The translations under genes and the position numbers were made by a program. The notes under the pieces are model-generated. The model did not search any database. It saw nothing but the letters and a program-made list of their open reading frames with translations, and was not told the origin of the DNA. A DNA stretch of 64,000 nt, taken from the IMG/VR virus record IMGVR_UViG_3300035210_000151; one strand, 5' to 3'. Positions within the stretch are counted from its first letter, which is position 1. The number at the start of each line of letters is the position of its first letter. Source of the DNA: a virus (lineage: Duplodnaviria > Heunggongvirae > Uroviricota > Caudoviricetes). Positions 6,081 through 63,130 of this stretch are shown piece by piece.

Positions 6081-6737
6081 ATGAAAGAAATCAGCAAGAT
6101 TGACAAGGCTACACAAAAGAAAATCGGTGATTTTCTTATGACCAACTATGGCTATGAAAAAATCGGCTACACACAAGGCAAAGCGAAATCTTACTTCATG
6201 TGTGGTTCTGATTTGTTGGAAGTGTCTCGCCGTCCTTTGATTGGTGCTGGTAAAGACGTATTCCACTATTCAATTTCATCCAATAGCCAGAGCTTGACAA
6301 AGAACTTCATTAAAAACCAGAAAGTTGTTGATTTTATCTTTAATGCCATTCGTGACATTAACGGTTTGAAGTATGATGTTGTGAGTAATGATAACCAAAC
6401 TATTTCTCGTATCAAGGTCATTGATTTTGTTATTCATGCTTTTGAAGGGCGTCTAGAAGACTTCCAGCGTGAGTATAAGCCCAGTGTAGGCTTTTGGGTG
6501 TCCACCACAGGGAGTGAACGACTATCGTATGTTATCGTTCATGCTGATGGCCGTGTGAACTATGCTGGTGCTGAAATCACGGCTAAACAGTTTGGTGAAT
6601 ACTTGATTAATGATTATGCCGCTTACATTGCAAAGATTGATGAATTTTTTGAGCATGATGGTCAACACAAAACGTTTGATGAACGTGTTGATGACTTAAA
6701 GAATACAATGATGACCAAAGAAATGTTTGCTATTTGA
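6081..6737 (+). CDS. Hypothetical protein with C-terminal MxxI tag (KEMFAI)
   Basis: Start reassigned to ATG 6081 after AAGG RBS and TGGTATAAT at 6038. Confidence 0.75.
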   Translation: MKEISKIDKATQKKIGDFLMTNYGYEKIGYTQGKAKSYFMCGSDLLEVSRRPLIGAGKDVFHYSISSNSQSLTKNFIKNQKVVDFIFNAIRDINGLKYDVVSNDNQTISRIKVIDFVIHAFEGRLEDFQREYKPSVGFWVSTTGSERLSYVIVHADGRVNYAGAEITAKQFGEYLINDYAAYIAKIDEFFEHDGQHKTFDERVDDLKNTMMTKEMFAI

Positions 6738-6783
6738 TTATGTGTAGAGAACAAAAAAGCCACTTGTGTGGCTTTTCATTTTT

Positions 6784-7614
6784 TTATGGATACAAGTCAT
6801 TTCTTAATGTATTCTTAAAATCAGCTTCATTGTCAAATGAATCTCTATATCTTTTAAAAATTTTATGTGGATCTAACATATTAGTACGACTAGAAAGTGT
6901 CATTGTAAATAAAGATGTGTTATGCAGAATCATATTTTTTACATGATCTTTTGTTGTGTTTTCGTTTAAATTAATAAATTTAAACAAATTTTCAGTAAAT
7001 CCAAATCTACCTGTTGCCTGCATTGAACAATAACCATATTGCTGTAAAACATCATATTCGGGTTCTTTAATTTCTTCTAAATCATACTTATAATACATCA
7101 TATCGAATAAATTTTTCACTTGTTCTTCGTGTTGCAAATGGTTTCTATAAATGACTTTTAATAAATCAGGAAAGCTCATCATACTGCGAAAACCTTGAAA
7201 TGTTTTTGGAATGTCAGACTTAATAAAAATGAAACATAATTTGTCTAGCCATGAGATAGCTCTGTCTCTCCAAAGTGAGTCTCCATTACTATAATCATCT
7301 ACTGGATCGATAAAGTTTTTTGTCATTTTTATAGACAACACATCATGATTTTCTATTTTGAAAATAGTTGTTAACTCGTTTAGATGAATGGTAGCGTCAT
7401 TGATAAAAGTTTTTAACATACTTAATCGTTCTGCCTGAGTATATATATTCTCTTTTTTTAAGATGACTGATTTATCAATGAGATCTGACCAACTATCGAA
7501 ATTGTTTTGTTTTGCAACAAGATTCAATGAGTCAGCATGATTTTTGATTGAGTTGTTATTTTTTCTTTCTTTTTTTGCCTGTTTTTTGAGATCGGCAATA
7601 GTAATGTAGTTCAT
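6784..7614 (-). CDS. Fusion of a Glyoxalase_8-like helical N-domain and an IcmO/DotL coupling-protein-like fragment without ATPase motifs
   Basis: N-term DLKKQAKKER...LNLVAKQNNFDSWSDL; GDSLWRDRAISW and VLQQYGYCSMQ resemble DotL GDMWKGRAIAF and VLEQHGFITMQ as recalled; GGAGG RBS before ATG 7614. Confidence 0.55.
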   Translation of the reverse strand: MNYITIADLKKQAKKERKNNNSIKNHADSLNLVAKQNNFDSWSDLIDKSVILKKENIYTQAERLSMLKTFINDATIHLNELTTIFKIENHDVLSIKMTKNFIDPVDDYSNGDSLWRDRAISWLDKLCFIFIKSDIPKTFQGFRSMMSFPDLLKVIYRNHLQHEEQVKNLFDMMYYKYDLEEIKEPEYDVLQQYGYCSMQATGRFGFTENLFKFINLNENTTKDHVKNMILHNTSLFTMTLSSRTNMLDPHKIFKRYRDSFDNEADFKNTLRNDLYP

Positions 7615-7768
7615 GGTAAATTCCTCCAATTATATAAGTCGATTATGTCGTGATAGCAAACGCCAACCGACTTTTTTGGTTGGAATTATGTAATTTGATG
7701 TTAATGATAATATTCAAACGAATTGTGCCTAAGACTATCAAGCGTGCAAATATCAGTTGCATTATTAA
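7615..7768 (-). promoter_or_regulatory. Candidate structured ~150-nt 5' leader
   Basis: Promoter TTGAAA-16-TG-extended TAAATT near 7770-7797; stems UGCAA/UUGCA, UGAUAGU/GCUAUCA, CCAACC/GGUUGG. Confidence 0.4.
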
Positions 7769-7885
7769 AATTTACACTATATTTTAGACTTTTCAATATT
7801 TAATGGTTGATTTTATTTTTTAACTATCTCTTTTATTTTATAGCAATAATGATAATATGAATAAAACAACTATATTATTAATGGA

Positions 7886-8269
7886 ATGAAAAATATAATC
7901 GGCGGATCTATCTTAGTCTTATTGGCTGGTTGTTCAAGTAATCAGGTCAATACCACTATGTATAATTTACATGCAATAAAAGGTAAGGAAGTTATTTGTT
8001 ACCAACAAGAAGAGGCTACTAGGCTTGTAAAAATGGGATTTACTGCCAGTGGTAAAGGTGACCAAGCTTTGATATTAGGTAATTCTATTAAGCAGTCAAA
8101 GTGTAAAATTGTTGAAAGAGAGCATGTCAGGAAAACGGGTGACCTTGTTATATTCCCTATCACTGACGAATTCCCTGAATCATTCAGAGGCGTTAAAAAA
8201 GCCGTTTACAAAGTTAATTATGAAAACAGCAGTTACTGGTTAGTGCCTACTGGTCATCCACGAAATTGA
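7886..8269 (+). CDS. Putative lipoprotein
   Basis: MKN + hydrophobic stretch + lipobox LAGC. Confidence 0.75.
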   Translation: MKNIIGGSILVLLAGCSSNQVNTTMYNLHAIKGKEVICYQQEEATRLVKMGFTASGKGDQALILGNSIKQSKCKIVEREHVRKTGDLVIFPITDEFPESFRGVKKAVYKVNYENSSYWLVPTGHPRN

Positions 8270-8328
8270 TTGAAAAATAAATCTATTTATGCTAAAATAA
8301 GCCATCTTTTAAAAGGGGCTTTTTTATT

Positions 8329-8949
8329 ATGTCATTATTCTTATTTGTTGTGTTTGCTTGCATTACACTTCCAATGCACTTGCTGTTGAATTATAAATTG
8401 TCGCCTGATTTTTCAAATGCCTATATGTTTAAAAGTCTTGCCATTACTGCTGCGTTGGCAATTGCTGCAATAGTTGAATACACGTATTTTACGAGTACAG
8501 TGTTTGCTTTGCTCTTTGCTTTTTCAATGGGGTATATTTTTCTTAAATTCTTGATGTTTGCAGCTATCACATCATTTGTTATCTTTAATGAGCAAGTTGA
8601 GAGTGACAGCCTTCCATCCTTGAAGTTATTTTTAAAGAACCTTAAAGTGAGAAGCTTTTATTTATCGAAAGGTCAATCTAATATTTATTTTCTCAACAAT
8701 GATGGTGTGAATATTTACTTTGATAAACACAGTTCTGATTTTGACACGCTTTCAAATGCCCATGTGACTTATTTTGCTAACTCTCTTGTTGATAAAACCT
8801 GTAAAAAAATAGAGCTTAATAAATTTGTCATCCTTAATGTTAAGGAAAGGTTCATGTCTGTTTCGTCAGATGAACTAAAAACGCTCGATGTTCCTATTGA
8901 GAAAATAACCAAAGAACATTTTGATTTGCTGCAGATGATGAAAATTTAA
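8329..8949 (+). CDS. Membrane protein, paralog 1 of 3, C-terminal MxxI tag (LLQMMKI)
   Basis: About 3 N-terminal TM segments; soluble domain shared with the next two genes (NIYFxxNxGVNIYFD...VSSDxL). Confidence 0.8.
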   Translation: MSLFLFVVFACITLPMHLLLNYKLSPDFSNAYMFKSLAITAALAIAAIVEYTYFTSTVFALLFAFSMGYIFLKFLMFAAITSFVIFNEQVESDSLPSLKLFLKNLKVRSFYLSKGQSNIYFLNNDGVNIYFDKHSSDFDTLSNAHVTYFANSLVDKTCKKIELNKFVILNVKERFMSVSSDELKTLDVPIEKITKEHFDLLQMMKI

Positions 8950-8969
8950 CATTACGGATAGAGGTTATT

Positions 8970-9587
8970 ATGTCACTTGAAACATTCCTGATTGTTCTCT
9001 TTATAGGTTTACCTGTTTCTTTGTTTTGGAATTATAAGTTTGCGTCTCAATTCACTAATGCTTACTTGTATAGAAAGTTAGCTGGACAATCTATTCTGGT
9101 TGTATTAGCCTTTGCTGAATATTTTTATTTTAACTCACTGGCGATGGGTATCGTTTTTACGTGTTTTATTGCTTGGGAGTTATTACAACTCATTATTGTG
9201 TTAAGTATTATTGGCTTTATTGCTTTTACAAAAAAACTTGATAAAAGAGAGTATGCAACGTTTGCCTTGTTTTTTACTCGTTTTAAAATGAGAACACTTT
9301 TTAAATCAGAAAATCCTAATATTTATTTCTTCAAGAATAATGGAGTGAATATTTACTTTGACGCCAATAGTGATGACTTTAAGTCTTTGTCAGAAGATTA
9401 CCTTAGTCGATTTAAAAACAACATCAAAGAAGAAAAATCAAAAAGTGTTGCATTTGAACATTTCTTGATATTGAATTGTGATGATAACTACCTTTCGGTG
9501 TCTTCTGATGATTTGCAGTTACTGAATGTGGATATATTCAACATAGATAGAAATCATTTTGATGTTTTGCGGATGTTGAAAATATAA
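8970..9587 (+). CDS. Membrane protein, paralog 2 of 3, C-terminal tag VLRMLKI
   Basis: Aligns by eye with 8329..8949 over its full length. Confidence 0.8.
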   Translation: MSLETFLIVLFIGLPVSLFWNYKFASQFTNAYLYRKLAGQSILVVLAFAEYFYFNSLAMGIVFTCFIAWELLQLIIVLSIIGFIAFTKKLDKREYATFALFFTRFKMRTLFKSENPNIYFFKNNGVNIYFDANSDDFKSLSEDYLSRFKNNIKEEKSKSVAFEHFLILNCDDNYLSVSSDDLQLLNVDIFNIDRNHFDVLRMLKI

Positions 9588-9660
9588 TATGATACTTTAA
9601 CACTGGTTTATGTGGCTGATATTTGTTATAATAAGGCTACTTATCTCAGGGGGTATTTTG

Positions 9661-10284
9661 ATGACATTTTCATTTATGGCAGCTATTGCAGTCATTGTTC
9701 AATTTCTAGTTGGTGTTTTGGAATACAAATATCCGAAGTCATTAACGCATGGACGAATGATCAAAAGGCTTATACCGCTGGCGTTTCTTTCTGTTTTGGC
9801 GTTTATGGAATATGTATTGACTGGGTACCATTATTTCACTTACTTCTTGGGTGCCTGTCTTGGCTTTATGTTTATTGCTACGCTGGGTGATGTGTGTAAA
9901 TATTTTTATATGCTTAATGCTAAAAGAAAAACTGATTTCAATGAGAATACAACAGATGCACTATTCTACTTGAATTGGAAGATTAAAAATTTCTGTTCAA
10001 CCGACCAAGTATCTAGAACGTTTTTCTTCAAACAAGATGGTCTTACTGTTTTTTTTGGAGAACCTGATTCTTCATTTGAAGCAATGGATAAAACAAAATT
10101 GCAATTGTTTAAAGACAGTCTTACACAATCAACGATGGGTCACATTAAATTTGGTGGATTTTTAGTTATCAAAAATAAAGATGATTATATCTCATTGTCG
10201 TCTGATGAATTTAAAATGCTCAACGTGCCAATTACAAAAATTAATCAAGATATTTTTAAAGCGATTGAAATGCTGAAAATTTGA
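9661..10284 (+). CDS. Membrane protein, paralog 3 of 3, C-terminal tag AIEMLKI
   Basis: Start reassigned to ATG 9661 (AGGGGG RBS, TGTTATAAT upstream); shared FFFKQDGLTVFF...LSSDEF domain. Confidence 0.8.
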   Translation: MTFSFMAAIAVIVQFLVGVLEYKYPKSLTHGRMIKRLIPLAFLSVLAFMEYVLTGYHYFTYFLGACLGFMFIATLGDVCKYFYMLNAKRKTDFNENTTDALFYLNWKIKNFCSTDQVSRTFFFKQDGLTVFFGEPDSSFEAMDKTKLQLFKDSLTQSTMGHIKFGGFLVIKNKDDYISLSSDEFKMLNVPITKINQDIFKAIEMLKI

Positions 10285-16596: not shown

Positions 16597-16620
16597 AAAA
16601 TAGCCTTCGGGCTATTTTTT
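16597..16620 (+). terminator. Intrinsic terminator
   Basis: AAAATAGCC-TTCG-GGCTATTTT. Confidence 0.85.
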
Positions 16621-16672
16621 GTTGCTTCAATTTTTTAAATGTAGTATACTCTTCAAATTATTAGGAGCCACA

Positions 16673-17332
16673 ATGCATATTCTTTTTAAAAAATTCTTTA
16701 ACCTTGATGACACAGTTCAATTTCCTGATGATATGGAAACTGGCTTTCAGTCTCTTACTGGCTTCGGTTCTATTAAGAAGAAGACCGCTAGCGACTCATT
16801 CATTATTAAAAAATGCGAAGATCCTTTAATTATTCGTCTTCACAATGAAGCGGTTGAAAGTTATCATCAGTTTGTCATCGCTTTTAATAGTAATTTCACT
16901 AATGGTTATACTCATCATAAGACATTTAAATTATTAAGGTCAAAAATTGACTTAGTTCGTGAAGAAATTGAATTTCAGTTTATTAACAAAAACAAGATTT
17001 TTGTTCTGTATTCAAACCATTTTGAATTTAAAGGTAAGAACGGACAAAAAGAAGTGGTGAGCATTTGTTACCGTATTCCTATTAATGAAAGAGAACCCTC
17101 AGAATGCACTGTTAAATTCGATTTAATTAAAGTGCCTTGTAACTACAACTATTATTCAGAGTCGGCTCTTGATTTCAAATACACAGGAAAGTATTATTCA
17201 ACTAATCTGTTGACTATTGTGTTTATTGCCAATAATTTCCGCAAACAGATTGAAGAACAGTTCGAAAGCATTGATAAGTTTGTTGAGAATTTTGATGATA
17301 ATATTAAAATACTCACAATGTTAGTATTTTAA
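16673..17332 (+). CDS. Hypothetical protein, C-terminal tag ILTMLVF
   Basis: AGGAG RBS before ATG 16673. Confidence 0.75.
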   Translation: MHILFKKFFNLDDTVQFPDDMETGFQSLTGFGSIKKKTASDSFIIKKCEDPLIIRLHNEAVESYHQFVIAFNSNFTNGYTHHKTFKLLRSKIDLVREEIEFQFINKNKIFVLYSNHFEFKGKNGQKEVVSICYRIPINEREPSECTVKFDLIKVPCNYNYYSESALDFKYTGKYYSTNLLTIVFIANNFRKQIEEQFESIDKFVENFDDNIKILTMLVF

Positions 17333-18004: not shown

Positions 18005-18559
18005 ATGAACACACAAATTGCAGCGATTGCCAAATATTTCGGAGTGCCCGATTACACCATTGATAATTACTGTGGTATTGTCGGGGATATGAAAGTCAAA
18101 CTGTCTCGCTATGAAGATTCTGTGGTTGTTTTCAAATATTCACAAAAAGCGAACCCTGTTAAAAAAATGATTGCTGATCACCAAGACGCAGTTTTAAATA
18201 CGCTTGATGGTTTGTTTGCTTTTGATAAAAAGACATTTCTTCAAAAATACAGCATTACTCACTATATTGCTGTGGATAAAAAGAATGACAACAAAGTTTC
18301 TTTTTATACTACCTACACTAAAAAGACCAATGAACAATTCCCACTGGATATCCAAGTCTTCGGTAAAAATCAATTTTACGAAGTCAATTTCATTGTGGTG
18401 TCTAAGGATGATGAATTTTATATCTCTGGACTGGGTGATAAACACGTTGTCAACCTTAAAGAATATTTCTTGCTTAAAAATTGCCATTATGACATTAAAA
18501 AAATGTTTGGCGATGTTGAAGAATTGAATAAAGATCTTATCGACATGTGTTTTATTTAA
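18005..18559 (+). CDS. Hypothetical protein, C-terminal tag LIDMCFI
   Basis: TATAAT promoter, 184 aa. Confidence 0.75.
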   Translation: MNTQIAAIAKYFGVPDYTIDNYCGIVGDMKVKLSRYEDSVVVFKYSQKANPVKKMIADHQDAVLNTLDGLFAFDKKTFLQKYSITHYIAVDKKNDNKVSFYTTYTKKTNEQFPLDIQVFGKNQFYEVNFIVVSKDDEFYISGLGDKHVVNLKEYFLLKNCHYDIKKMFGDVEELNKDLIDMCFI

Positions 18560-24816: not shown

Positions 24817-25578
24817 CTAGATTAAGTAGGCAAAATAAAGATCAAGATGGTTTTGTTCAAAACTCTCATATTCATATTCATTGTTTGAAAAGAATACCTG
24901 CAGTTCTTTTCTCCAGCAAAAATGAAAAATAACTTTTTCGAAATAAATTCTAATAAATTCACTGGCTTCTTCTATGCTATTGAACTCATCTTTCAGTACT
25001 GTTTTTGATCGAGCATGGGGATCGGTTGTAAATACTACAACTTTGTCACCTTTTAGATGATAAGCTACTGTAAATTTATGTTTTTGAATTTCTTGAACAA
25101 TTGAATTAACAATAGTAAACTCATTTTCATTCATATAAAAATATTTGAAAATTCTCATTGGTTTGTTGTAATAAGACTTTCCAGTTGTTTTTGTTTTAAG
25201 TTGATAGACATCATTATCAACAAAATGACTACTGAGCATAATATCACTCTTGTAAAAATCAATCTCAGCTTGACTATGTTTAATCAATCCCATTTTAATA
25301 TACGTGTTAAAAACAACATCAATAATTTTTTGTTCCATTTCTTTGGGCATCAGTGTAATTTGATCATTAAGTTTACTGATAATATGACGATATTTCTGGT
25401 TACTGTCGGCTGGAAATGCAGCAGATTTCTTTGCTGTAATTGTATAAATCTCATTTTTATCACTGACTGGGAATACTGCATAGTGTTTTAACATTTCAAA
25501 ATTATCAAAAATGTTTAGGAAATCTTTATTTTTGAGCATGGCTCTACCATGTTTTACAAACAGTTCGTTGACACTCAT
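24817..25578 (-). CDS. Hypothetical protein, variant C-terminal tag LYFAYLI
   Basis: AAGGAG RBS before ATG 25578. Confidence 0.7.
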   Translation of the reverse strand: MSVNELFVKHGRAMLKNKDFLNIFDNFEMLKHYAVFPVSDKNEIYTITAKKSAAFPADSNQKYRHIISKLNDQITLMPKEMEQKIIDVVFNTYIKMGLIKHSQAEIDFYKSDIMLSSHFVDNDVYQLKTKTTGKSYYNKPMRIFKYFYMNENEFTIVNSIVQEIQKHKFTVAYHLKGDKVVVFTTDPHARSKTVLKDEFNSIEEASEFIRIYFEKVIFHFCWRKELQVFFSNNEYEYESFEQNHLDLYFAYLI

Positions 25579-25699
25579 TTTTTGCTCCTTTAAATGACCA
25601 CAGAAAATTATAACATTAAGCAACACTATTTTCAAATATATTTTTCAATAGGGCTTTCATTTTCTGCTTTCTCTTGGTATTATATACTCAACATACTTA

Positions 25700-31663: not shown

Positions 31664-32356
31664 ATGGCTAATTACGAAATAACAGCTCAATCAGCAACTG
31701 ACCTGAAAAGACACCTCTACCAAGATGAAGTGTTTATTAGTGTTCATCAACCTAATATGAGTTGGCTTAAAGAGATTGGCTTTACTGCTTACAAACCTTC
31801 TGAAATGAAGGTGTTTAGCCAAAATCCTAAGTTCTACAAGATTGAAGATGATCATATTTTCTTTATTTTGTTTAGGACTCAAGATCCTAACGCTGGCAAG
31901 TATGATGTTCGTGAAAAATACAAACTATTAAAAAGTAATAAGCTTATTCAGAAGCTTAAAATGAATGACGATATCTTTGATGATTTTTTACAATACATGA
32001 CGCCATCTGTTGATATTAAAAGTCCTAGTATGATTATGTATCTTTCTATCAAACGTGATTATATTTACTATGATAACAATAGGAATAAAAAGACGTTATC
32101 TTACTTTGTGAATGTCAACAGAGTTATGTTGAAAACTGATTCTGAGAATGATTTTTATCTCTCAACTGTTCAATTTGAAGAGGGTAAGCTGACCTATATA
32201 GAAGTCATGATTGATGGTGTTATTAAATCAGGCGAACCTTTAAAAAGTGTTTGGAACGAGTTGTCTGTGTTGACGCCTACATTGGAAGAGTTCTTTAATT
32301 TTGAAGTGGATTTAACAGATGAGATGAAGTTTTTGTTTCAGGCTGTGGCTATTTAA
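31664..32356 (+). CDS. Hypothetical protein, variant tag LFQAVAI
   Basis: AGGAG RBS, follows the ARH gene. Confidence 0.75.
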   Translation: MANYEITAQSATDLKRHLYQDEVFISVHQPNMSWLKEIGFTAYKPSEMKVFSQNPKFYKIEDDHIFFILFRTQDPNAGKYDVREKYKLLKSNKLIQKLKMNDDIFDDFLQYMTPSVDIKSPSMIMYLSIKRDYIYYDNNRNKKTLSYFVNVNRVMLKTDSENDFYLSTVQFEEGKLTYIEVMIDGVIKSGEPLKSVWNELSVLTPTLEEFFNFEVDLTDEMKFLFQAVAI

Positions 32357-42146: not shown

Positions 42147-43097
42147 GTGATTATGCTTACGATTGAAGAAATTAAAAATTACTTAAATATGCCAGAACTC
42201 CCTATTGCCCATACTAATAGTGAGCGGAATTTTTATGTTAAAAAAATATATGATGATTATTATTGTTCAAATCACGATCAATCTATCATTATTCGAGCCT
42301 TTGACGATTTTGAACCCATTAGTGTTTCAACGTCTCGCTATTTTACTGTATACCTTAATGATGTTGTCATTTTGACGTATGCGGGCGATCACTCTTATAA
42401 TTCAGATGTCTTCAAGATTTTTGATGGATTACCCTTTATGACATTAATACCAGAACATTTTGATTTTTTCGTTAATGAAGTCAATACAAAAGGTCAAGAT
42501 TGCATTGTATATTTTGATCGAATGTCTGAAAAATCTATTGACTATGAAGGTGATCAAAATATCTCCATTCTTTATGTATCGTTGAAGGAAAAAAAATATA
42601 AGGATAAATCTTTTTACAAAATTGTGAAGGGTGAACTGTTGCACTCGTATGGCTTTTACACCAATCAATATTTTGGCAATAATGAATATAAGAAATATTT
42701 TAATAAAATAGCTTATCTGAAACAATATTATCAGTTATACACACTTATGATTTATCAATCTATTGATGCTCAGAACGTTCGCTTTCTACTCAATAATTAT
42801 GATTTTGAAATCATACTGAACAATTCAGCAAATAATACTCAATTGTTTACTGAACCTAACCATTCGGTAGCTTATCAATATGAAAAAAATAAACGTCACT
42901 CTGCTATTTCTGTTGACACCACAGGTGCTACTGATTGTATTGAAGCGTTGATGGATCAATTGATTAATATTTTATTCAAAGAATACCCATGTGCTGAATT
43001 CTCCCAGTTTTTGTCAGAAGCAGGGCGTTATCATTCATCGTTGACGGATCACGAATTTGATGACTATATCCAATTATTCAGGATGAGCACTATCTAA
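42147..43097 (+). CDS. Hypothetical protein, tag LFRMSTI
   Basis: GAGG RBS, TGCTATAAT promoter. Confidence 0.75.
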   Translation: MIMLTIEEIKNYLNMPELPIAHTNSERNFYVKKIYDDYYCSNHDQSIIIRAFDDFEPISVSTSRYFTVYLNDVVILTYAGDHSYNSDVFKIFDGLPFMTLIPEHFDFFVNEVNTKGQDCIVYFDRMSEKSIDYEGDQNISILYVSLKEKKYKDKSFYKIVKGELLHSYGFYTNQYFGNNEYKKYFNKIAYLKQYYQLYTLMIYQSIDAQNVRFLLNNYDFEIILNNSANNTQLFTEPNHSVAYQYEKNKRHSAISVDTTGATDCIEALMDQLINILFKEYPCAEFSQFLSEAGRYHSSLTDHEFDDYIQLFRMSTI

Positions 43098-43413: not shown

Positions 43414-43809
43414 TTGAGCGACTACGAAGAATTTGATAAGAGAGCAGTCTTAAATAATATTATGATTGTTGACCAATTGTTTAAAGCTAATGGAGCCATC
43501 CATAAAATTTGCTTTGATATGCAACGTGATTATGAGACTAATCGTGAAGATGGCTATAATGGTTTTAGTTTTAGCCTAGATCCTGATATTTATAATTTTC
43601 ATCTTTATGCAAATGATTTCACATTAAGTGTTGATCATAATAGTGTTTTTTGTTTTTATGGAGGATTTGGTGTTCAATTTAAGCCATCACCGTCATCAAC
43701 AATAGAGCAATTTAAACAGTTACTGCTTATTGTGATTAATATGAATTCAGAACAAAAATTTGATAATATTGAGCAGTTCATTGACCTGCATAACATGATA
43801 TACATCTAA
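43414..43809 (+). CDS. Hypothetical protein, tag LHNMIYI
   Basis: TTG start with GAAGGA RBS. Confidence 0.7.
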   Translation: MSDYEEFDKRAVLNNIMIVDQLFKANGAIHKICFDMQRDYETNREDGYNGFSFSLDPDIYNFHLYANDFTLSVDHNSVFCFYGGFGVQFKPSPSSTIEQFKQLLLIVINMNSEQKFDNIEQFIDLHNMIYI

Positions 43810-43826: not shown

Positions 43827-44597
43827 ATGCTTTTAACAAATGCTTCACGTTTACTGGAAGTTTATTTTCACATTAGCGATTTGGCTAAATTTGAGATTGA
43901 TACGACATTCGCCAGTGAATTACTCTCACCCAGCGAAAAACGTTTTTTAATGGACGCTGTTCGTGCATTAGCAAACGACATATTATCAGTTTCAGAAGAC
44001 TTTAAAACCAGTATTAATTTTTATATCCGTCAATCAGGTTGCTTGATTGAGATGGATTCTTCTTATCCGTTTTTAATCCAATCATCTTTTAATTTTGAAC
44101 TGTATGAACCTTTAATTAAACATAAGTCGCTTGATCAGTATGTGAACGATTTAATTTATCAAAATGATAGATATCGAACCTATGGAAGTTATTTGACTCT
44201 TGTTGATTTTAGATCTTTCTTTGAAAATATTAGATTTATTGATAACTTATTTGAATTTGATGGCAAATTTTATTCGTTTTATCAAGACATTGATTTTACA
44301 TTAGGGGCACGAGAAGTTAAATTTGATTCTTTTAATTCTTTTGTACATTGTGGTGAAAACCCTCTGTTAAAAATTCAATTTGGGGATCTTCTGGTCACCA
44401 TCTCACCTGATGAATTTTCTTTTGCTATTATGGGTGGTTCCGCTATTTTGACCATATCTAAGCAAAGCAGACGGAGTTATCAACAGAAAAAAGATAACTT
44501 AGCAACACTTATTATAGATATGTATAATATGGAGTTAATGACAGAAGCTGACACCATGAAAAATTTATTACTATTGATTAGAATGAAGGCTATTTAG
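43827..44597 (+). CDS. Tandem family member 1 (YPF-domain), tag LIRMKAI
   Basis: SDL...LANDIL...SYPF motif. Confidence 0.75.
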   Translation: MLLTNASRLLEVYFHISDLAKFEIDTTFASELLSPSEKRFLMDAVRALANDILSVSEDFKTSINFYIRQSGCLIEMDSSYPFLIQSSFNFELYEPLIKHKSLDQYVNDLIYQNDRYRTYGSYLTLVDFRSFFENIRFIDNLFEFDGKFYSFYQDIDFTLGAREVKFDSFNSFVHCGENPLLKIQFGDLLVTISPDEFSFAIMGGSAILTISKQSRRSYQQKKDNLATLIIDMYNMELMTEADTMKNLLLLIRMKAI

Positions 44598-44910: not shown

Positions 44911-45753
44911 ATGTTTGATGAAAATCTGCCATATCAGTTAAAAACTGGTAGGCAATTAATAAAGTTGTCTGATTTAAAAAATGCTGAACTCATTGGTGTT
45001 CAGGATGAACACAATTTAAAAATTTCTCGTTTTTTAACGATTCTTGCTGATGATATTTTGTGTATGCGTGATGATGTGAAAACTTATGCTTTTATAGAAA
45101 TTGTTGATGATGTATTTTCTATATGTCTAGACTATTCTTATCCTTTTTTGGAGTTTTTAAACAGCACTCACCCTATTAAGATAAATAAATCATTAAATAG
45201 AGTTTATTTTCGTTTAAATCTAAATCTATCAATAGATTTAATCACTCCCACATTGTTGGCGATATTCCTTGATGAATTAAAAGCTGATGGTTGGTATAAG
45301 TTTAATGATGATGATGAGCGAGAGTCGGAAACTGGTTTGATGGAACAGTTTATTCACATCAATGCATTGGATACTTTTTATGTATTTGATATCATCGATC
45401 AGTCATTGGGCTATGATGGAAAACTGTCCAAACTGGTTAAAAATAATATTTACTATGTAATGCCATTCTCAGAAGAAGATGAGTTCTCAATGTTTGAATT
45501 TAGAAACTTTAATTCAAGTAATATTGAGTTGACACTCACTAACCATGATTTCTACATTAAAGTTATCAATAACACAATTAGATTTGAATATTTATATGAT
45601 TCGATGGAGTTTAATTTAAATAAAAAACATCCAGTTGCCTTTAATATTAAAAAATTTACTAAATTCTTTTTAAGTTTTTACAATATTCAACACGACACGG
45701 ACCATGATGATTTACCACGCTGGATTAAACTTCAGGAAATGATAGCCATATAA
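44911..45753 (+). CDS. Tandem family member 2, tag LQEMIAI
   Basis: LSDL...LADDIL...SYPF; II..SLGYDG.L motif. Confidence 0.8.
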   Translation: MFDENLPYQLKTGRQLIKLSDLKNAELIGVQDEHNLKISRFLTILADDILCMRDDVKTYAFIEIVDDVFSICLDYSYPFLEFLNSTHPIKINKSLNRVYFRLNLNLSIDLITPTLLAIFLDELKADGWYKFNDDDERESETGLMEQFIHINALDTFYVFDIIDQSLGYDGKLSKLVKNNIYYVMPFSEEDEFSMFEFRNFNSSNIELTLTNHDFYIKVINNTIRFEYLYDSMEFNLNKKHPVAFNIKKFTKFFLSFYNIQHDTDHDDLPRWIKLQEMIAI

Positions 45754-45855: not shown

Positions 45856-46695
45856 ATGGCTAAATCAAAAAAAGATGACGAACTTATTATTCTTTCCAAT
45901 CATGATAACCATACTGTTATGTTAACCGACTTGCGTCGAGTAAACATTGAAGGAATCAGCAAGCAAAAAAATAATAGAATGTTAGCCTACTTTGACCTTC
46001 TTGTTGACGATCTTTTAATTTACAATGGCGATTTTGAGTTGGATGTCGAAATTTCGATGAGTGCTGATGACATGTTTATGAGTGTCATGTTAGAGAAATC
46101 ATATCCTTATTATGATGATTGTATTTTTCTTTGTTTTGATCTAAAAGAAAAAGCAAGTATTCAGAATTTAGCAAGAGCACTTTCTAATCTTGACACTGAT
46201 GATCGGGAACATTGGGATGACAAAGATGATATTGTGAAATACATTGACTGTAGTTTTGGTTATGAGCATGAATTGATGTTGAGTGATTATCCACCTATGT
46301 TTATTGAGTATGGTTGTGGGCTGATGCGTAATGTTCGCCTCGTTGATAAAGCACTCTATTTTGACAATCAACTGGTTAAAACTTTTCGTAATAATAACAT
46401 AACAACAAGTAATGATATACGCATTGATTCATCATCCTTTACATTCACGATGCAGGGAACAAAAGAACCTGACATCTTTGTGAATTCCGCTTACCTTGAT
46501 ATTAGAATTGAAAATGATGGTGTGAAGTTTACGTTTGATAAGGATAATACATTTACTTTTACCACAACGACTAATTTTGAACGTGATTTTAATATGTTAC
46601 AGATGTTTATTAAAATGTTTATTGAAAAAAAGAAAGATCACGATATTCATGATTTGAAAAGTGAACTTTTGTTGATTGAGATGGAAAATATTTGA
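45856..46695 (+). CDS. Tandem family member 3, tag LIEMENI
   Basis: LTDL...LVDDLL...SYPY. Confidence 0.8.
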   Translation: MAKSKKDDELIILSNHDNHTVMLTDLRRVNIEGISKQKNNRMLAYFDLLVDDLLIYNGDFELDVEISMSADDMFMSVMLEKSYPYYDDCIFLCFDLKEKASIQNLARALSNLDTDDREHWDDKDDIVKYIDCSFGYEHELMLSDYPPMFIEYGCGLMRNVRLVDKALYFDNQLVKTFRNNNITTSNDIRIDSSSFTFTMQGTKEPDIFVNSAYLDIRIENDGVKFTFDKDNTFTFTTTTNFERDFNMLQMFIKMFIEKKKDHDIHDLKSELLLIEMENI

Positions 46696-46696
46696 T

Positions 46697-47752
46697 ATGA
46701 ATAAATATAAATATTTACTTAATGCCGATAATTTTTACATGTGTTCCATGACAGACTTAAAAACAACCACATTTAAAAAATTAAAAGATGAACATAAACG
46801 AACATTGTTAAATCGGTATTTAAGCCTGTTAGTTGATGATGCTTTATCTAATAATAAACCGGACTTCAAAATAGAAATTCGGATGGATATCAATGATGAT
46901 ATTGTCGATATAAGCATTGGAACCGCTTATCCGTTTATAGGACAATTTGATTTGTCTCAACCATTTAACAAGTCTTGTGTACTGGATTATTTGAATAATA
47001 CTAATTTAGTACTGAGTGACAATGGGACAGAAGGTACCTTAAATGAATTTAGGAAAACGCAAGTATTGTTTACTACTGCATCATTTAATAAAAAGCTATC
47101 TGAATATTTATCATTTATTGCAGATGATGTTTTCCCTTTTGTTGAAGATAATAAAATTTATTATAGTATTAAAGCTCATGAAACAAGTTTTGACTTGCTG
47201 TTGGGCCATGCTTATCCTTTTTTTGAGACAAATGTTCTTCGTTTTAAAATTGATTTGGAGCAAGATTTCAATAGTCTTTTGATAGTTGAACAATTGAATG
47301 TTTATGCTCAAGAGCAATTAAAAGATCCAAAAACTAACTTTTTTGTTTTAATTAAAGATGGTTTACAATTTTTAGAAACTATTAAGATTTTAGAAAATGT
47401 TTTAGGGTTTGGCAATCAATTAACAAGTCTTTACTATAATAATTCTATTTTAAAACCTATTAATGAAATTTCATTTCTTTCTATTGAGCATCAAAAACGT
47501 CAATTATCTTTAGAAATGGTGTCTAAGGGTGAACTTGCTCTAGATATTCATATTAGCCAATCTAATCTTGCTTTTCTTTTTGGTAAAAGAGATGGCACAT
47601 CTGAGAATTTTACATGGCTACGTACTGAATGTATGGATCATGATACATTAATGGTTCATCAATTTTTTATTATTTATCTTGAAAAATGGCTTGGGCATAA
47701 GATTACAGATTTAGCAAGGGAAATAAAATTACTTGAAATGGAGGCTATTTAA
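46697..47752 (+). CDS. Tandem family member 4 (two N-domain copies), tag LLEMEAI
   Basis: Two LVDD/IADD...AYPF repeats. Confidence 0.8.
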   Translation: MNKYKYLLNADNFYMCSMTDLKTTTFKKLKDEHKRTLLNRYLSLLVDDALSNNKPDFKIEIRMDINDDIVDISIGTAYPFIGQFDLSQPFNKSCVLDYLNNTNLVLSDNGTEGTLNEFRKTQVLFTTASFNKKLSEYLSFIADDVFPFVEDNKIYYSIKAHETSFDLLLGHAYPFFETNVLRFKIDLEQDFNSLLIVEQLNVYAQEQLKDPKTNFFVLIKDGLQFLETIKILENVLGFGNQLTSLYYNNSILKPINEISFLSIEHQKRQLSLEMVSKGELALDIHISQSNLAFLFGKRDGTSENFTWLRTECMDHDTLMVHQFFIIYLEKWLGHKITDLAREIKLLEMEAI

Positions 47753-48780
47753 TGCCAGATAAGTATATTTTAAGTGGAGCTAAGGTTAATGGACTAATCT
47801 CAGAATTAAAAAATTTGAAATTTTGTGATGACATTAACAATTACAACGAAGCAATTCGAAGATATATAAATCTTCTGGTGGATTCAGCTCTTTTACAGGT
47901 AAAAGATGTCAAAATTCAGTATTGTATTACGATTAATTTTAATATAATGACTATCCATTTATGTGATAAATTCCCATTCATGGCAACTTTCGATCTTGAC
48001 GCTCCATTCAATGAAAATAATGTATTAGAACATCTTAATAACGAAAATCTCGTAATGAATAATGCCCGATATTTATGTGATATAGATGAATTAAGATATC
48101 AAAAAGTTTTATTTGTTGGCACTGAGGACAATAAGAAAATATCAGCATATTTAAGTATGATTGTTGATGACATATTGGTTTTTGGTGAACACTTTGAAAC
48201 TGAGTTTAGTCTTAGCGTTAATAATAATATGTTTACTATTGAAATGACAAAATCATATCCCTTTGTTGGTTCTTATATTGAACTTAAGTTCGATTTAAAC
48301 GAGCCAGTTGATATTAATAACATATCAAGTCAATTGGATGAACTTAGAAAACATCATATTTATCTTGAACGTGTTAATTATTATGTAAGCTTAGATGTTG
48401 GCAAAAAGTTTTTAAACCGTATTGATATTATTGAAAAAGCTCTGGGTTATGATGGCAGATTAAAGGATGTTTATCTTAATCGTTCAATTTACAAGACGAA
48501 AGAAAAATTTTCTTTCTTTGATTTTGAAGTCAAAAATAGGAGTTTCTTAGAACTAACACTTCACTCATCAGAAACAGACATGACTATTGAAATTGAGTCT
48601 AATTATATTTTCATTGGATTTAGTGATTATGATAGATTCTCTTGGACATTTACAGATGATGAGGCATCTGATGTTTCTATTATTCGAAAAATGTTTATAA
48701 TTTACCTTGAAAAGAAATTGGATAAAAAAATAGTAGACTTGAAAAGAGAAATACAACTAATTGAAATGGAGCATATTTAA
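47752..48780 (+). CDS. Tandem family member 5 (two N-domain copies), tag LIEMEHI
   Basis: TAATG overlap; LVDS...KFPF and IVDD...SYPF. Confidence 0.8.
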   Translation: MPDKYILSGAKVNGLISELKNLKFCDDINNYNEAIRRYINLLVDSALLQVKDVKIQYCITINFNIMTIHLCDKFPFMATFDLDAPFNENNVLEHLNNENLVMNNARYLCDIDELRYQKVLFVGTEDNKKISAYLSMIVDDILVFGEHFETEFSLSVNNNMFTIEMTKSYPFVGSYIELKFDLNEPVDINNISSQLDELRKHHIYLERVNYYVSLDVGKKFLNRIDIIEKALGYDGRLKDVYLNRSIYKTKEKFSFFDFEVKNRSFLELTLHSSETDMTIEIESNYIFIGFSDYDRFSWTFTDDEASDVSIIRKMFIIYLEKKLDKKIVDLKREIQLIEMEHI

Positions 48781-49541
48781 TGGTAGAAAATTCTAATAAA
48801 AAAATAGAAATTGAAAGTGCTCGAAGTTATGAGTTAAACCTTAGTGAGTTAAAATATATCTCCATTATTAAAGGTAATCATACTTCTTTTGACCATTTGC
48901 AAATGATTCAATATATTAATATGATTGTTGATGATGTTATGGTTTATGGGGAGGATTTCAAAGTTATATTTAATGTATCTATTACAGAGCATATACTTGA
49001 TTTTGAATTTAAATCTCTTTATCCCTTCATTAACGGTCTAGTCATGTTTAGTATAGATCTTCGGGAAGATGTTAATTTTCAACGTATTGCTAGAACACTG
49101 GATCATCTGATTGATATTAATATCAGGCATGGTCAGCGGATTAATTATACAGATCTAAGTCATCATACGATGTTTAGTAACATTAATATCGTTGATCAAG
49201 CCTTATTTTATGAGGGTAAATTAAAAGAAGTGTTTTCTAAGCGTTCACTTTTTGAAGAAAGTGTTAAATTTTCCTTCTTTGACTTAAATTTTTTGAATAA
49301 TGGGGCGACGAGAATTCAACTTCTTTCTCTCAGTGCTGGTGTATCTATTTGGATTGATATTAATAAGGTTTCATTTAGCTTTGATAGCAAAGATTCATCT
49401 ATTTGGTGTTTTACTGATGATGCTTCATTTGATATGTTATCAATACGTCAATTATTTGTACTCTACCTTGGCAAAAAATTGAATAAACCCATTATAGACG
49501 TTCGAAGAGAAATCCAATTGATTGAAATGCAAACTATTTAG
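48780..49541 (+). CDS. Tandem family member 6, tag LIEMQTI
   Basis: TAATG overlap; IVDD...LYPF. Confidence 0.8.
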   Translation: MVENSNKKIEIESARSYELNLSELKYISIIKGNHTSFDHLQMIQYINMIVDDVMVYGEDFKVIFNVSITEHILDFEFKSLYPFINGLVMFSIDLREDVNFQRIARTLDHLIDINIRHGQRINYTDLSHHTMFSNINIVDQALFYEGKLKEVFSKRSLFEESVKFSFFDLNFLNNGATRIQLLSLSAGVSIWIDINKVSFSFDSKDSSIWCFTDDASFDMLSIRQLFVLYLGKKLNKPIIDVRREIQLIEMQTI

Positions 49542-54013: not shown

Positions 54014-54168
54014 GTTCAATATTTCTCCTAATTGATTTAATGTAACATCAAATAATACGCTCATAAAGCACTTAAGTCAAGCACCTTTATGCTTTTTTTT
54101 TTGATTTTTTGATAGCATATCTTCTTATATTATGATATCATTAGCCATCAATAATGTGGAGAGTATTT

Positions 54169-54873
54169 ATGGCGTTTTTAAATTTTACAACCAAAGAAGA
54201 ATTCATGGCTATTGTTTATTCTGCTAATGATACCGTTCGTTTAACTAATTCGAAAGACAGTCCTTCAGAAATCAGCCTTATTGAGTCGTTTGGTTTTGAA
54301 AGAATAGAGCGTGGCAGTATTGAACACGCTATTTCTTTGCATGGTATTACCTATCGTTTTATTGATGAGACGACAGACACTACCATTTATATTTCATTCA
54401 GTAACCCTGTGAAGTTGTATACGGGCATCTCGTATATGCTAAATAAACATTTTTTCTCAACGTCCAAGAAAGTGTATCACAGAGAAAATAGCCAGCCAGC
54501 TTTTATTAGTTATCATGGTAGTGGTAAACCACATATTCAAAACTATGCAATCTATGGTAAAACACCACCAATCACTATTATTGATGACAAAGAATACTCT
54601 TATCTGACCACTGTTACATCGACCAGAACGACTAAAGATTATCTATTCGAAAAACAAAAATGGCACGCTACTCAATATCGGTTTAATAATAAATCAATGT
54701 CTCCATTACAGGTTACCTATTATAACGATAAATTTCCGACGAGCTTTATTGAATTCCATGCTTTAAAACGACTTTATCCTGATTTAGCTCGACTGGTTGG
54801 GTATGACCGCATTAATTTGAACAAAAGTCTGACACCCGAAGAAATAACGCTGCTTGAAATGATGATGTTTTAA
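54169..54873 (+). CDS. Hypothetical protein with HRE..PA-type repeat motif, tag LLEMMMF
   Basis: YHRENSQPAFISY...YAIYGK; GGAG RBS. Confidence 0.7.
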   Translation: MAFLNFTTKEEFMAIVYSANDTVRLTNSKDSPSEISLIESFGFERIERGSIEHAISLHGITYRFIDETTDTTIYISFSNPVKLYTGISYMLNKHFFSTSKKVYHRENSQPAFISYHGSGKPHIQNYAIYGKTPPITIIDDKEYSYLTTVTSTRTTKDYLFEKQKWHATQYRFNNKSMSPLQVTYYNDKFPTSFIEFHALKRLYPDLARLVGYDRINLNKSLTPEEITLLEMMMF

Positions 54874-56239: not shown

Positions 56240-57298
56240 GTGGAGAAATTCAAAGTGACACAACCTTATGATTTACTTTTATCAGAGATAAAATCCTTTT
56301 ATGATTTAGACAATTGCTCTGTCATTCAAGGCAGTCGATCAAATGTTTATTTACTGGATAGAAGTCCACGAGATTATCAATTTATGGTGAATCTCTTCAA
56401 ACCTGAGACTGCCAATTATAATATTTCAAAAATAAAACAAATGTCATCGTTATATGATTTACTTCATCATGTTGACACAGAATATTCAACCATCAGTAAT
56501 AAACAGTTAAGAATTGAGATTTATGATGTTTCTGACACCAATGACAGAGGTCTTGTGCAAGTTTCTTTTGGAAATGTTCTTTATTTTTCAATAGAAAAAA
56601 AAGCAAAAACGACACCTGAAGATATTTATTTTAGTTCACTATTTTTGAAGGATAGCTCACGTATTGATAACAAAAAATTTGAAGCCCATTATTCTGAATT
56701 ATTAGAAAAACTTGCTCTATTTATTGATAAAGATATGACCATGCAGGAATTTAATGATCGAGATAAAAAAACACTGGATGAGATACGAACCGAGAATTTG
56801 AGTAATAAAGACCTTATTTATTGCAGTAAAGCGGATTGTGCTACCTATTTCCATAGTTTTTCACGACCCCCAGAAGATTTTTTTGTTCCGTTAACAAGAG
56901 CATTTAGTAAAAATCTTATGCAACAAGTTAAAACGATTGAAGCTTTGCTTCGTTTTGAATCGAATCTTAAACATAATCGATCTGTTTATGAGTTGGTATT
57001 TAACACTAATCTCTCTAATTATAAATTTATACTTCCAAATCTCTTGTATTCTATAGTTTTTGAATATGAACAGGATTTAAATTTAAGTGTTACACTTTAC
57101 TTTCAATTTAAAACAGATGTGCTTCGTTATCTTGAAATTGATCATCATACACACGAGAAGGTTGATATATTGGGTTATGAAGCGATCTACAATTATATTT
57201 CAAATCGTATTAAAACATTTATTACTGCCAATCTTGGAGTGTCACAGGAAGAGATCACAAACGAATCAATTTTGCTTTATAGAATGATGGCAATATGA
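56240..57298 (+). CDS. Hypothetical protein, tag LYRMMAI
   Basis: 352 aa, GTG start, internally repeated YDLL/YEL pattern. Confidence 0.7.
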   Translation: MEKFKVTQPYDLLLSEIKSFYDLDNCSVIQGSRSNVYLLDRSPRDYQFMVNLFKPETANYNISKIKQMSSLYDLLHHVDTEYSTISNKQLRIEIYDVSDTNDRGLVQVSFGNVLYFSIEKKAKTTPEDIYFSSLFLKDSSRIDNKKFEAHYSELLEKLALFIDKDMTMQEFNDRDKKTLDEIRTENLSNKDLIYCSKADCATYFHSFSRPPEDFFVPLTRAFSKNLMQQVKTIEALLRFESNLKHNRSVYELVFNTNLSNYKFILPNLLYSIVFEYEQDLNLSVTLYFQFKTDVLRYLEIDHHTHEKVDILGYEAIYNYISNRIKTFITANLGVSQEEITNESILLYRMMAI

Positions 57299-61330: not shown

Positions 61331-61457
61331 AATTAAGGTTTATAAAATACAACATTCTTCAAAAATAGTCAATCTTTTTTAAAAAACTCTTTAAATCTAG
61401 ATTGTCTTGTGTTATTATAGTGTCTACATATTAATAACCAGATGGAGTTTTAAAATT

Positions 61458-61622
61458 ATGAACAAATCATTGATGGCTGATATTGCCGAATCTTCTGTGA
61501 CCGAAGCAGAAATTGAAGATCTTGATTATGATGTCAAGGAAGCTACTTTGCCGCGTGATGGCTGGGTAGAGCTTGAAGTGCCCTGCTCAGGTGCATTAAA
61601 GCATCCTACTGATGTTGCCTAA
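61458..61622 (+). CDS. Small acidic hypothetical protein
   Basis: GGAG RBS before ATG 61458. Confidence 0.6.
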   Translation: MNKSLMADIAESSVTEAEIEDLDYDVKEATLPRDGWVELEVPCSGALKHPTDVA

Positions 61623-61626
61623 TTAG

Positions 61627-62298
61627 GTGTTTCCTATTGTGAATGAGAACCATTTGCCCAATAATATGATTACAGATCATAGGGCATTTGTTCCATCATT
61701 GGATTCTTTATTGAGTGCTGATAGGTTGTTGTCTAATAATCTTTATTTTTCTATGGATAAAGAAACATTTTGCCCATTCATGGAAATGCATGGATATCAG
61801 GTAGATAAGACAGTTATGCCAGCAAAAAGCACCACATTAAAATTCACCAACAAAACGACAACTATCCTTTTTCAAAAGGTGACCATAGACAATAAACGTC
61901 TTTTTACTGTTTTAATGATCTCTTACAAAGAGGGCGATGTTCGATCCATCGTCTTTAATTATGACGGAAGTTTTTATGAGATTACTTATAGAAGTGATAA
62001 AGATTTTCATATAGTTAAGAAAACCTCATTATCTCGTTATAATGATGGCACCATTTATTATCAGTTTTTTGTTCATAATAGTCTTCACTCAAAATGCTAT
62101 TTATCTTCTTTTTGTTTAAATAAAGGCGTTATTAAAGACGTTTTATACTTTATAAATAACAAATGCTATCCATTGAACAAACTGTTAAATGCATTAGGTA
62201 GACCAGAAATAGATGTCAGTGCTGAAAGCGATTATTTGAAATTAGTTAATTTATTTACTGATGATGACGCGATTCTTATCGAAATGGCTATGTGTTAA
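61627..62298 (+). CDS. Hypothetical protein, tag LIEMAMC
   Basis: GTG start; paralog-like to the next gene. Confidence 0.7.
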   Translation: MFPIVNENHLPNNMITDHRAFVPSLDSLLSADRLLSNNLYFSMDKETFCPFMEMHGYQVDKTVMPAKSTTLKFTNKTTTILFQKVTIDNKRLFTVLMISYKEGDVRSIVFNYDGSFYEITYRSDKDFHIVKKTSLSRYNDGTIYYQFFVHNSLHSKCYLSSFCLNKGVIKDVLYFINNKCYPLNKLLNALGRPEIDVSAESDYLKLVNLFTDDDAILIEMAMC

Positions 62299-62320
62299 TA
62301 TTGCCAAACAGGAGAAATTT

Positions 62321-63130
62321 ATGAAATTGGAACCATTATTTAAACCAGAAGACTATGTTAAAAAACCTTTGACAGAGTATGTTATTACACCTGAGATTGC
62401 AGAGACATTAAATGAAGTAATGTTTCTTGATATGTTGAAAACAGATTATTTTTTTATGCTCTTTCTTTTGCCGCTTGGCGATATTGATTCATTTCTTAAT
62501 AAGTTAGGTTTTAAACGACAAGAAAGATCTGTTTATAAGAATAGTTTAGGTTATCACTTAACTCTATCTGTCCGTACATCACCTAAACATAAACAGGGTT
62601 ATTATTTATCAACCCTTAACTACCCTGATAATGTTAAAAGAATTTCTTTTGAATTTGAGCATATGTATAGAATTGACATCTATTACAAGAGTCAAGATGA
62701 GCGTTATTCTGAGGGTACATACCCGGTAGACTTTAACTATGTCATAAAACTCGATAAAGAAACTTATAATATCATAAGCATTCATCATTCATGCGATCTA
62801 TTTAATTTAAATCATGTTGAATTGCATACATCTAACTCGCTTAAAACATTTGCACATAAGCTTGACTATAATATTCATCGTATTGAAGAAGAACCATTAT
62901 CAAGTATTACTATTGATGAACAGTTATTCAACAATGTCTCACTATTTGATGTTGTTTATATTATTACTTCTGAAACAGATCGTATTCGATCTTTTACCTT
63001 ATCTGATATTGTTCAAACATGTGGGTTTAGCTTTGATAGGATGATTGGTAATAATATGGAGCACTTCATGAACATTGAGAACATCTTTGATGAAGATGAA
63101 CTGAAAGTCATTGAAATGGTTTATATCTAA
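62321..63130 (+). CDS. Hypothetical protein, tag VIEMVYI
   Basis: AGGAG RBS before ATG 62321. Confidence 0.75.
   Translation: MKLEPLFKPEDYVKKPLTEYVITPEIAETLNEVMFLDMLKTDYFFMLFLLPLGDIDSFLNKLGFKRQERSVYKNSLGYHLTLSVRTSPKHKQGYYLSTLNYPDNVKRISFEFEHMYRIDIYYKSQDERYSEGTYPVDFNYVIKLDKETYNIISIHHSCDLFNLNHVELHTSNSLKTFAHKLDYNIHRIEEEPLSSITIDEQLFNNVSLFDVVYIITSETDRIRSFTLSDIVQTCGFSFDRMIGNNMEHFMNIENIFDEDELKVIEMVYI

Follow-up and report, generated by a model that had tools for sequence, protein, structure and literature searches.

We analyzed a 64,000-nucleotide stretch of viral DNA (Caudoviricetes; IMG/VR record IMGVR_UViG_3300035210_000151; the whole stretch is hereafter called the window), in which about a quarter of the genes encode proteins that share a C-terminal tail, [LVI]-x-x-M-x-x-[IFC], followed directly by the stop codon. 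Counted back from the last residue (-1), the tail places a Met at -4. We consider that the tail carriers form one lineage-specific, hyper-diverged protein class whose terminal helix acts as a docking handle for one conserved partner, a reading that we hold with about even confidence. The tail itself occurs far more often than expected by chance, and no description of the tail or of a carrier family was found in the full-text literature searched, papers on jumbo and huge phages included.

An earlier note on this DNA had proposed a shared C-terminal tag on about 22 proteins, 20 of them with Met at -4. In a greedy, non-overlapping set of open reading frames (ORFs) of at least 50 residues, which comprised 81 ORFs, all 22 C-termini were recovered on both strands at the coordinates listed below. 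Twenty of the 81 ORFs end in M-x-x-[I/F/C], versus 0.35 expected from the amino-acid composition, and two variant carriers have Ala at -4 (24817-25635 on the minus strand, LYFAYLI; 31664-32356, LFQAVAI). Inside the window proteins, [LVI]xxMxx[IFC] was present at 10 of 18,653 positions. When paralogs were collapsed by BLASTP and hidden Markov model (HMM) iteration, the 22 carriers fell into 13 sequence groups, namely families A (three members), B (two) and C (seven) and ten singletons, and 13 groups with the tail are still far above chance.

Two relatives served for comparison. The virus record IMGVR_UViG_3300031133_000383 (hereafter G001; 437,043 bp) is syntenic with the window in its region 158-200 kb. 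Contigs of 1.84-1.92 Mb carry homologs of families A and B (70-91% identity), and one contig of this size (JGI 3300028584 Ga0308423_1259934; 1,851,360 bp) is syntenic at positions 648088-669242 with about 26000-47000 of the window. The carriers of the window are as follows.

5979..6737, plus strand: carrier of 252 residues directly 3' of the VWA/DUF2201 gene, ending KEMFAI, a weak tail without Leu at -7; its G001 ortholog keeps TKEMFSI.
8329..8949, plus strand: family A, 206 residues, ending LLQMMKI; the tail follows three hydrophobic N-terminal segments and a ~110-residue soluble domain.
8970..9587, plus strand: family A, 205 residues, ending VLRMLKI.
9610..10284, plus strand: family A, 224 residues, ending AIEMLKI.
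16619..17332, plus strand: singleton, 237 residues, ending ILTMLVF; the G001 ortholog (34% identity) ends ILIMQTF.
18005..18559, plus strand: singleton, 184 residues, ending LIDMCFI; the G001 ortholog (32% identity) ends LLDMYFL.
24817..25635, minus strand: variant carrier, 272 residues, ending LYFAYLI (Ala at -4); the G001 ortholog ends LLEAYRV, also with Ala at -4.
31664..32356, plus strand: variant carrier, 230 residues, ending LFQAVAI (Ala at -4); its orthologs keep Ala at -4 (IIRALLI in G001, LFEAVSI on the 1.85-Mb contig).
34635..35789, minus strand: family B, 384 residues, ending LYKMVKI; a 91% identical ortholog lies on the 1.85-Mb contig.
35786..36916, minus strand: family B, 376 residues, ending VYEMINI.
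42147..43097, plus strand: singleton, 316 residues, ending LFRMSTI.
43414..43809, plus strand: family C, 131 residues (C-terminal half only), ending LHNMIYI.
43827..44597, plus strand: family C, 256 residues, ending LIRMKAI.
44911..45753, plus strand: family C, 280 residues, ending LQEMIAI.
45856..46695, plus strand: family C, 279 residues, ending LIEMENI.
46676..47752, plus strand: family C, 358 residues with a duplicated N-terminal module, ending LLEMEAI.
47752..48780, plus strand: family C, 342 residues with a duplicated N-terminal module, ending LIEMEHI.
48780..49541, plus strand: family C, 253 residues, ending LIEMQTI; the modeled protein of family C.
54154..54873, plus strand: singleton, 239 residues, ending LLEMMMF; the G001 ortholog (42% identity) ends LIEMLTF.
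56240..57298, plus strand: singleton, 352 residues, ending LYRMMAI; the second modeled protein.
61627..62298, plus strand: singleton, 223 residues, ending LIEMAMC; its positional counterpart in G001 has the tail on a barely alignable body (z 2.7).
62261..63130, plus strand: singleton, 289 residues, ending VIEMVYI.

Three carriers lie on the minus strand, and family A, with its three strongly hydrophobic N-terminal segments, stands beside soluble carriers; the earlier note was thus right that the tail occurs on both strands and on soluble as well as membrane proteins. It was equally right that recognizable enzymes lack the tail. No window carrier has a Pfam domain, and the tail is missing from the MoxR-like ATPase, VWA/DUF2201, DnaK, PNKP-type phosphatase, DEDDh exonuclease and NADAR proteins, as well as from the ADP-ribosylglycohydrolase, CYTH, DsbA-like, ATP-grasp and NUDIX proteins. 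Among the carriers, the codons for Leu, Ile and Glu of the tail differ synonymously and the DNA 3' of the stop codons shows no relation, which places the constraint on the protein; a DNA-level signal was rejected on these grounds. No upstream motif specific to carrier genes survived multiple testing. Across the aligned family C members, only L-7, M-4, and I-1 are invariant.

The same tail dominates the relative G001. Met is found at -4 in 102 of its 569 ORFs of at least 60 residues, compared with 15 expected and with 8-17 at each other position of the last ten. A position-specific scoring matrix (PSSM) built to ignore position -4 added about 15 tail-like G001 proteins with Ile, Leu or Ala at this position. 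Met is therefore strongly preferred but not absolute, being present in about 85% of the tail-like proteins. For G001 and the window together, which contain 106 carriers, Leu, Val or Ile occupies -7 in 101. The information content peaks at -7 (L/V/I), -5 (E/K), -4, and -1 (I/Y/L/F), followed by -11 (D/E/N) and -9 (L/I/F), while -2 and -3 vary and the residues at -5 and -11 are mainly acidic. Loop-forming residues are scarce from -1 to -8 and again near -30, with a peak at about -16 in between, a profile that fits a helix-linker-helix ending common to the class. The helix formed by the tail is hydrophobic over more than half its surface.

By sequence, the carriers beyond the tail have little in common. 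With the last 15 residues masked, 87 carriers gave 74 BLAST components, and the 106 tail-masked carriers gave 73 jackhmmer components. HMM iteration, A2 and A3 profiles, hhalign, and tail-masked jackhmmer detected no cross-family homology beyond families A, B, and C. The tail thus crosses every family boundary that sequence methods draw. Taken at face value, the 73 groups and the mixture of membrane-anchored and soluble carriers favor a portable sorting or docking tag on truly unrelated proteins, such as a secretion, virion or compartment import signal. We nevertheless regard such a tag as improbable, since the carriers are not a random sample of proteins. None of the 106 carriers matched Pfam (E ≤0.001), whereas 106 size-matched non-carriers of G001, which often have a known domain, matched 47 families. 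Carrier lengths fall in a narrow range (188-365 residues for the 5-95% interval, median 247). By size, carriers make up 37% of the ORFs of 200-250 residues, but none of the 76 ORFs of 60-100 residues and none of the 13 ORFs of at least 600 residues.

A shared fold in two families without sequence likeness also distinguishes the carriers from a random sample and speaks against a portable tag. Family C and the family of 56240-57298 gave an hhalign probability of 0.9%. The AlphaFold2 model of the family C protein (48780..49541, 253 residues) has a mean predicted local distance difference test (pLDDT) score of 85.6 and consists of a helix, three strands, a helix, two helices, six strands, and a long helix (residues 215-234). 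Six residues past this long helix of the folded domain, the terminal helix begins (residues 241-252, pLDDT ~94). The model of 56240-57298 (352 residues, mean pLDDT 68) has a longer N-terminal part, a helix (residues 224-245), five strands, a long helix (residues 313-332), and the terminal helix (residues 342-351). The two models agree in the order of these elements, with the sandwich followed by the long and the terminal helix. In an exhaustive structural comparison of both models against 48,161 PDB chains, the two C-terminal domains matched largely the same chains. These include Med17C (4h62_Q, Z 6.7 for family C and 8.0 for 56240; also 7emf_Q and 5n9j_W) and CyaY/frataxin chains (4jpd_A, 4hs5_A, 7n9i_A, and 2fql_A), with Z values in the generic-architecture range for the latter (6.8 for 4jpd_A and 6.7 for 4hs5_A with family C; 5.3 and 4.7 with the 56240 model). 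The C-terminal domain of T4 MotA (5jlt_A and 6k4y_M), the FP domain of Fbxo7 (4l9c_A), and TriTu (7zhm_D) were also shared. The coincidence of the two match lists argues for one fold, although the Z values are typical of a generic two-layer α/β sandwich and uninformative on function. Foldseek against the PDB and a shape search of the ESM Atlas gave no clear match for either model, feature searches of the Atlas with two carriers gave nothing usable, and PDB sequence profiles gave no match. The earlier description of the families as unrelated is therefore not supported: a larger shared C-terminal domain, which the note itself had named as a refutation, is present in 8 of the 22 window proteins and is plausible for most of the others.

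Most structural alignments of both models stop at or before the start of the terminal helix, and homologs without the helix exist. A search of 1.84 billion representative proteins with the family C profile returned only 55 relatives. Of the 55, about 40 have Met at -4 and five carry Ile or Leu at this position without a shift in register; two are longer by one residue, and five distant clusters end directly past the penultimate helix and are tail-less. Two tail-less clusters were examined; both lie on small contigs of low GC content with no tails in neighboring genes, and one adjoins a tail-less tandem paralog. In family A, the tail is preceded by the three hydrophobic segments and a soluble ~110-residue domain with an apparently different element order. 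For 56240-57298, there are 16 homologs on contigs of up to 604 kb, and the tail LLYxMxxI is invariant in the 13 aligned. Since tail-less relatives exist and the tail of family A sits behind a smaller, apparently different domain, the tail can be described as an appendage on a common scaffold. Tail-less homologs of a carrier family also speak for a portable tag; as far as these comparisons go, the tail seems to be neither a tag on arbitrary proteins nor an indispensable part of the fold, but separable to a degree.

The tail and the bodies evolve at different rates. Between the window and G001, reciprocal best hits were obtained for 7 of 19 carriers (mean identity 33%) versus 38 of 49 non-carriers (mean 49%), the latter including well-conserved proteins such as DnaK (84%), PNKP (81%), VWA (77%), and MoxR (73%). 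Families A and B are absent at the syntenic positions of G001, and family C has seven copies in the window and three in G001. The tail is kept between genomes with carrier bodies at 22-52% identity or beyond detection, and both variants with Ala at -4 keep Ala in the window and in G001. Against the ~90% identical relative (the 1.85-Mb contig stretch), the ratio of nonsynonymous to synonymous substitution rates (dN/dS) was 0.12-0.37 for carriers (0.88 for one near-identical pair) and mostly 0.04-0.15 for non-carriers. These ratios indicate that the carriers are real genes under relaxed or diversifying, yet still purifying, selection. Within the tails, the two sequences differ only at -2, -5, -8, and -9. 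Purifying selection on the tail is thus strong, while the bodies change rapidly and the copy number differs between relatives. Separately, the order of the MoxR-like ATPase, a 158-residue protein, VWA/DUF2201, and the weak-tail carrier (window 2424-6737) is kept at 159.7-163.4 kb of G001.

From these patterns we propose the following organization. A typical carrier of about 250 residues would begin with a variable N-terminal region (in family A membrane segments, elsewhere a soluble α/β module), continue with the C-terminal two-layer α/β sandwich, the long helix, and a short acidic linker with a helix N-cap, and close with an amphipathic terminal helix of 12-14 residues that ends exactly three residues past the near-invariant Met. 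On a helical wheel, a variable hydrophobic stripe (-9, -6, and -2) presumably packs on the carrier's own variable body. The near-constant stripe of L-7, M-4, and I/Y-1, flanked by E-5 and D/E-11, would form the docking handle together with the free C-terminus, to be read by one conserved partner of the element or the host. A constant stripe and a strict stop three residues after Met are expected if an invariant outside partner grips this face and the free carboxylate. A large diversifying repertoire could in this way be plugged into one machine, with a logic resembling that of the F-box-like module of poxvirus ankyrin proteins. The further claim that one reader, encoded by a megabase-scale, phage-like element or by its host, recognizes the free C-terminal L-x-x-M-x-x-I helix on about 100 different fast-evolving proteins per genome, or 15-25% of the proteome, seems to us possible but rather doubtful.

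Several observations weigh against a docking handle on a single class. Docking was deduced from the conservation pattern alone, with no partner found. The shared fold matches are generic (Z ≤8), the models cover two of the 13 sequence groups and one is mediocre (pLDDT 68), and, with the tail-proximal domain of family A seeming to differ in its element order, the one class may be several. About 15% of the tail-like proteins tolerate Ile, Leu or Ala at -4, as expected of an ordinary buried hydrophobic position. The pLDDT of ~94 for the terminal helix fits a self-packed helix as well as an exposed handle. The last two points, together with the largely hydrophobic helix surface, favor a reading without an outside reader, in which the terminal helix is a structural cap or a self- or mutual-pairing interface frozen by compatibility among paralogs. 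Type III secretion chaperones and the Fbxo7 FP domain are among the fold matches, and such sandwiches are often dimers. A predicted homodimer of the family C protein scored 0.43 versus 0.27 for the best control, below the required margin, and is neutral on binding. Against this reading, the rest of the fold core is not conserved at all, yet the three tail positions are near-invariant in more than 100 paralogs; the stop is held at exactly three residues past Met, a precision that packing by itself would not demand of a helix; and the helix-less relatives show that the sandwich is independent of the helix. We therefore consider the cap or pairing interface somewhat unlikely.

If the helix is a docking handle, its partner might be sought among the systems named in the earlier note, which had inferred one shared receptor. 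The conservation pattern does fit one partner, but none of the proposed receptors gained support. DnaK and MoxR, suggested there as readers, are encoded by genes that, like the VWA gene, are merely well-conserved neighbors. As for a secretion coupling protein, the 437 kb of G001, which may belong to a larger genome, gave no match to the type IV coupling protein (PF02534) and one match to the secretion-ATPase family (PF00437) that stayed below the cut-off. An ABC exporter ATPase (ABC_tran) also had no match in these 437 kb of a possibly incomplete genome. Within this scope, these results weigh against the portable tag. In its favor, there is a loose similarity to Dot/Icm signals in the acidic upstream residues and the hydrophobic -4. 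G001 does encode an HlyD-like membrane fusion protein (G001:114870-115562, minus strand), without an ABC transporter ATPase match in the 437 kb.

The conserved free C-terminus and hydrophobic last residues could also suit a degron or a protease-adaptor motif at the C-terminus, which would control how long an early protein repertoire persists. In bacteria, a non-polar C-terminus can target a protein for proteolysis, and G001 encodes M48, S49, and S26 peptidases; a LysR-type regulator is encoded as well. However, the tail is unlike the ssrA-type (…LAA) or MuA-type (basic, …KAI) ClpX signals, with variable -2 and -3, acidic -5 and -11, and I, Y, L or F at -1. A structured helix abutting a folded domain would be atypical of a degron, which we judge very unlikely here.

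Should the helix prove to be a docking handle, one interaction would govern a large proteome share of some of the largest phage-like genomes known, and a simple 14-residue tag would be available to follow or redirect proteins in these systems. If one reader serves all carriers, they would constitute an address-label system without a described counterpart in bacterial viruses, which could, for example, pack a diversifying set of effectors into the particle or attach them to one host machine. The identity of the reader would give a role to hundreds of orphan genes at once. Even without a reader, the class is instructive, with bodies that diverge beyond detection and three tail residues that stay fixed, and the excess of Met at -4 is a lineage marker for metagenomes.

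The replicon that bears the carriers is unusual. No near DNA match to the window was found among deposited phages, plasmids, and IMG/VR, where one related virus record turned up. The window's replicon may be megabase-sized and thus well above 841 kb, the largest phage genome that we found in print (bioRxiv 10.1101/2025.01.14.633092). G001 has a completeness rating of 98%. Two domain models of the terminase large subunit (Terminase_6N/6C) had no match in G001, no G001 ORF exceeds 800 residues, whether by code 11 or when TAG or TGA is read through, and PHROG matches are almost absent among ten of its largest ORFs. Either G001 is a fragment or it differs from a conventional tailed phage. An alternative genetic code was rejected for G001, as TAG or TGA readthrough adds almost no long frames. 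Its 26 tRNAs include an amber-suppressor-like one with a CUA anticodon and one four-base anticodon call (agaa), these two unusual tRNAs lying at L027:15947-16020 and L028:9162-9237. With the tRNAs, many orphans, and few housekeeping domains, the gene content seems phage-like rather than cellular. Xanthomonas phage XacN1 was rejected as a cultured model; it shares 24 mostly accessory proteins with G001 and has no tail excess.

Some proteins without the Met tail have endings of their own. A second, Lys-rich C-terminal pattern (...K-x-K-P or similar) occurs on non-carriers, in 11 of 650 ORFs versus 0.4 expected from internal positions. In the window it is present at 10347-10919, 26463-27623 (minus strand), 29521-30726, 54960-56144, and 59743-60201, and several G001 ORFs have it too. 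The NADAR protein is among its carriers, and the PNKP-type phosphatase has a similar end that falls short of the scripted rule. A trio of paralogs lacking the Met tail (39280-40251, 40450-41436, and 41554-42024) shares the ending Y-[AG]-[LV]-C-R-V-[NV]-x. The window contains four paralogous DEDDh-type exonuclease genes (12463-13512, 13578-14555, 22717-23727, and 23802-24806), and the largest BLAST paralog group of G001 (nine ORFs) includes orthologs of two of them.

Among known structures, frataxin/CyaY and Med17C give alignments of 83-99 residues with the C-terminal domain of either model (Z 4.7-8.0, in the range of generic shared architecture) at 4-10% identity, and the terminal helix is extra in the carriers. 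Among known motifs, the nearest is the C-terminus of RB69 gp43, whose C-terminal peptide binds the sliding clamp gp45. This DNA polymerase ends KKASLFDMFDF, with L at -7, M at -4, and F at -1, and thus has L-x-x-M-x-x-F in the same register at its extreme end. A clamp-binding motif of this type could tether many proteins to DNA. However, in RB69 the motif sits on one replication enzyme, whereas here about 100 orphan proteins bear it, and it is implausible that more than 100 proteins without a replication domain are clamp clients. The gp43 tail is flexible with basic flanks, while that of the carriers, flanked by acidic residues, is predicted to be helical and lies near a folded domain, and RB69 gp55 has a different register. 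Neither the gp45 C-terminal domain (PF09116) nor β-clamp domain 3 (PF02768) was matched in G001, which may be a fragment, and twelve RB69 proteins (mostly of the replisome and recombination, gp45 included) had no BLASTP match there. A clamp-binding tail is thus only a very slight possibility.

The effectors of the Legionella Dot/Icm system are likewise a large orphan repertoire with a C-terminal signal, hydrophobic near -3/-4 and acidic upstream. Dot/Icm signals are degenerate, however, whereas the tail here is helical and nearly invariant, and the element looks phage-like and not cellular. Encapsulin cargo peptides and the C-terminus of the HK97 prohead protease are short C-terminal peptides that dock cargo inside an HK97-fold shell. 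They have other sequence motifs and are extended, in contrast to the helical tail, but docking of this kind might offer a mechanism should the carriers be packaged; the searched sequence yielded no capsid or terminase gene. As a working analogy for the logic, we use the poxvirus ankyrin/PRANC proteins. They form a large viral multigene family that evolves fast, with bodies that vary and a C-terminal element that stays constant. There, the F-box-like PRANC element plugs all members into one host machine. The carriers have no sequence or Pfam relation to them (none of the 106 matched, PRANC and ankyrin included), and whereas PRANC is a domain of about 50 residues, the carriers would achieve a comparable connection with a single helix of 12-14 residues that needs a free C-terminus.

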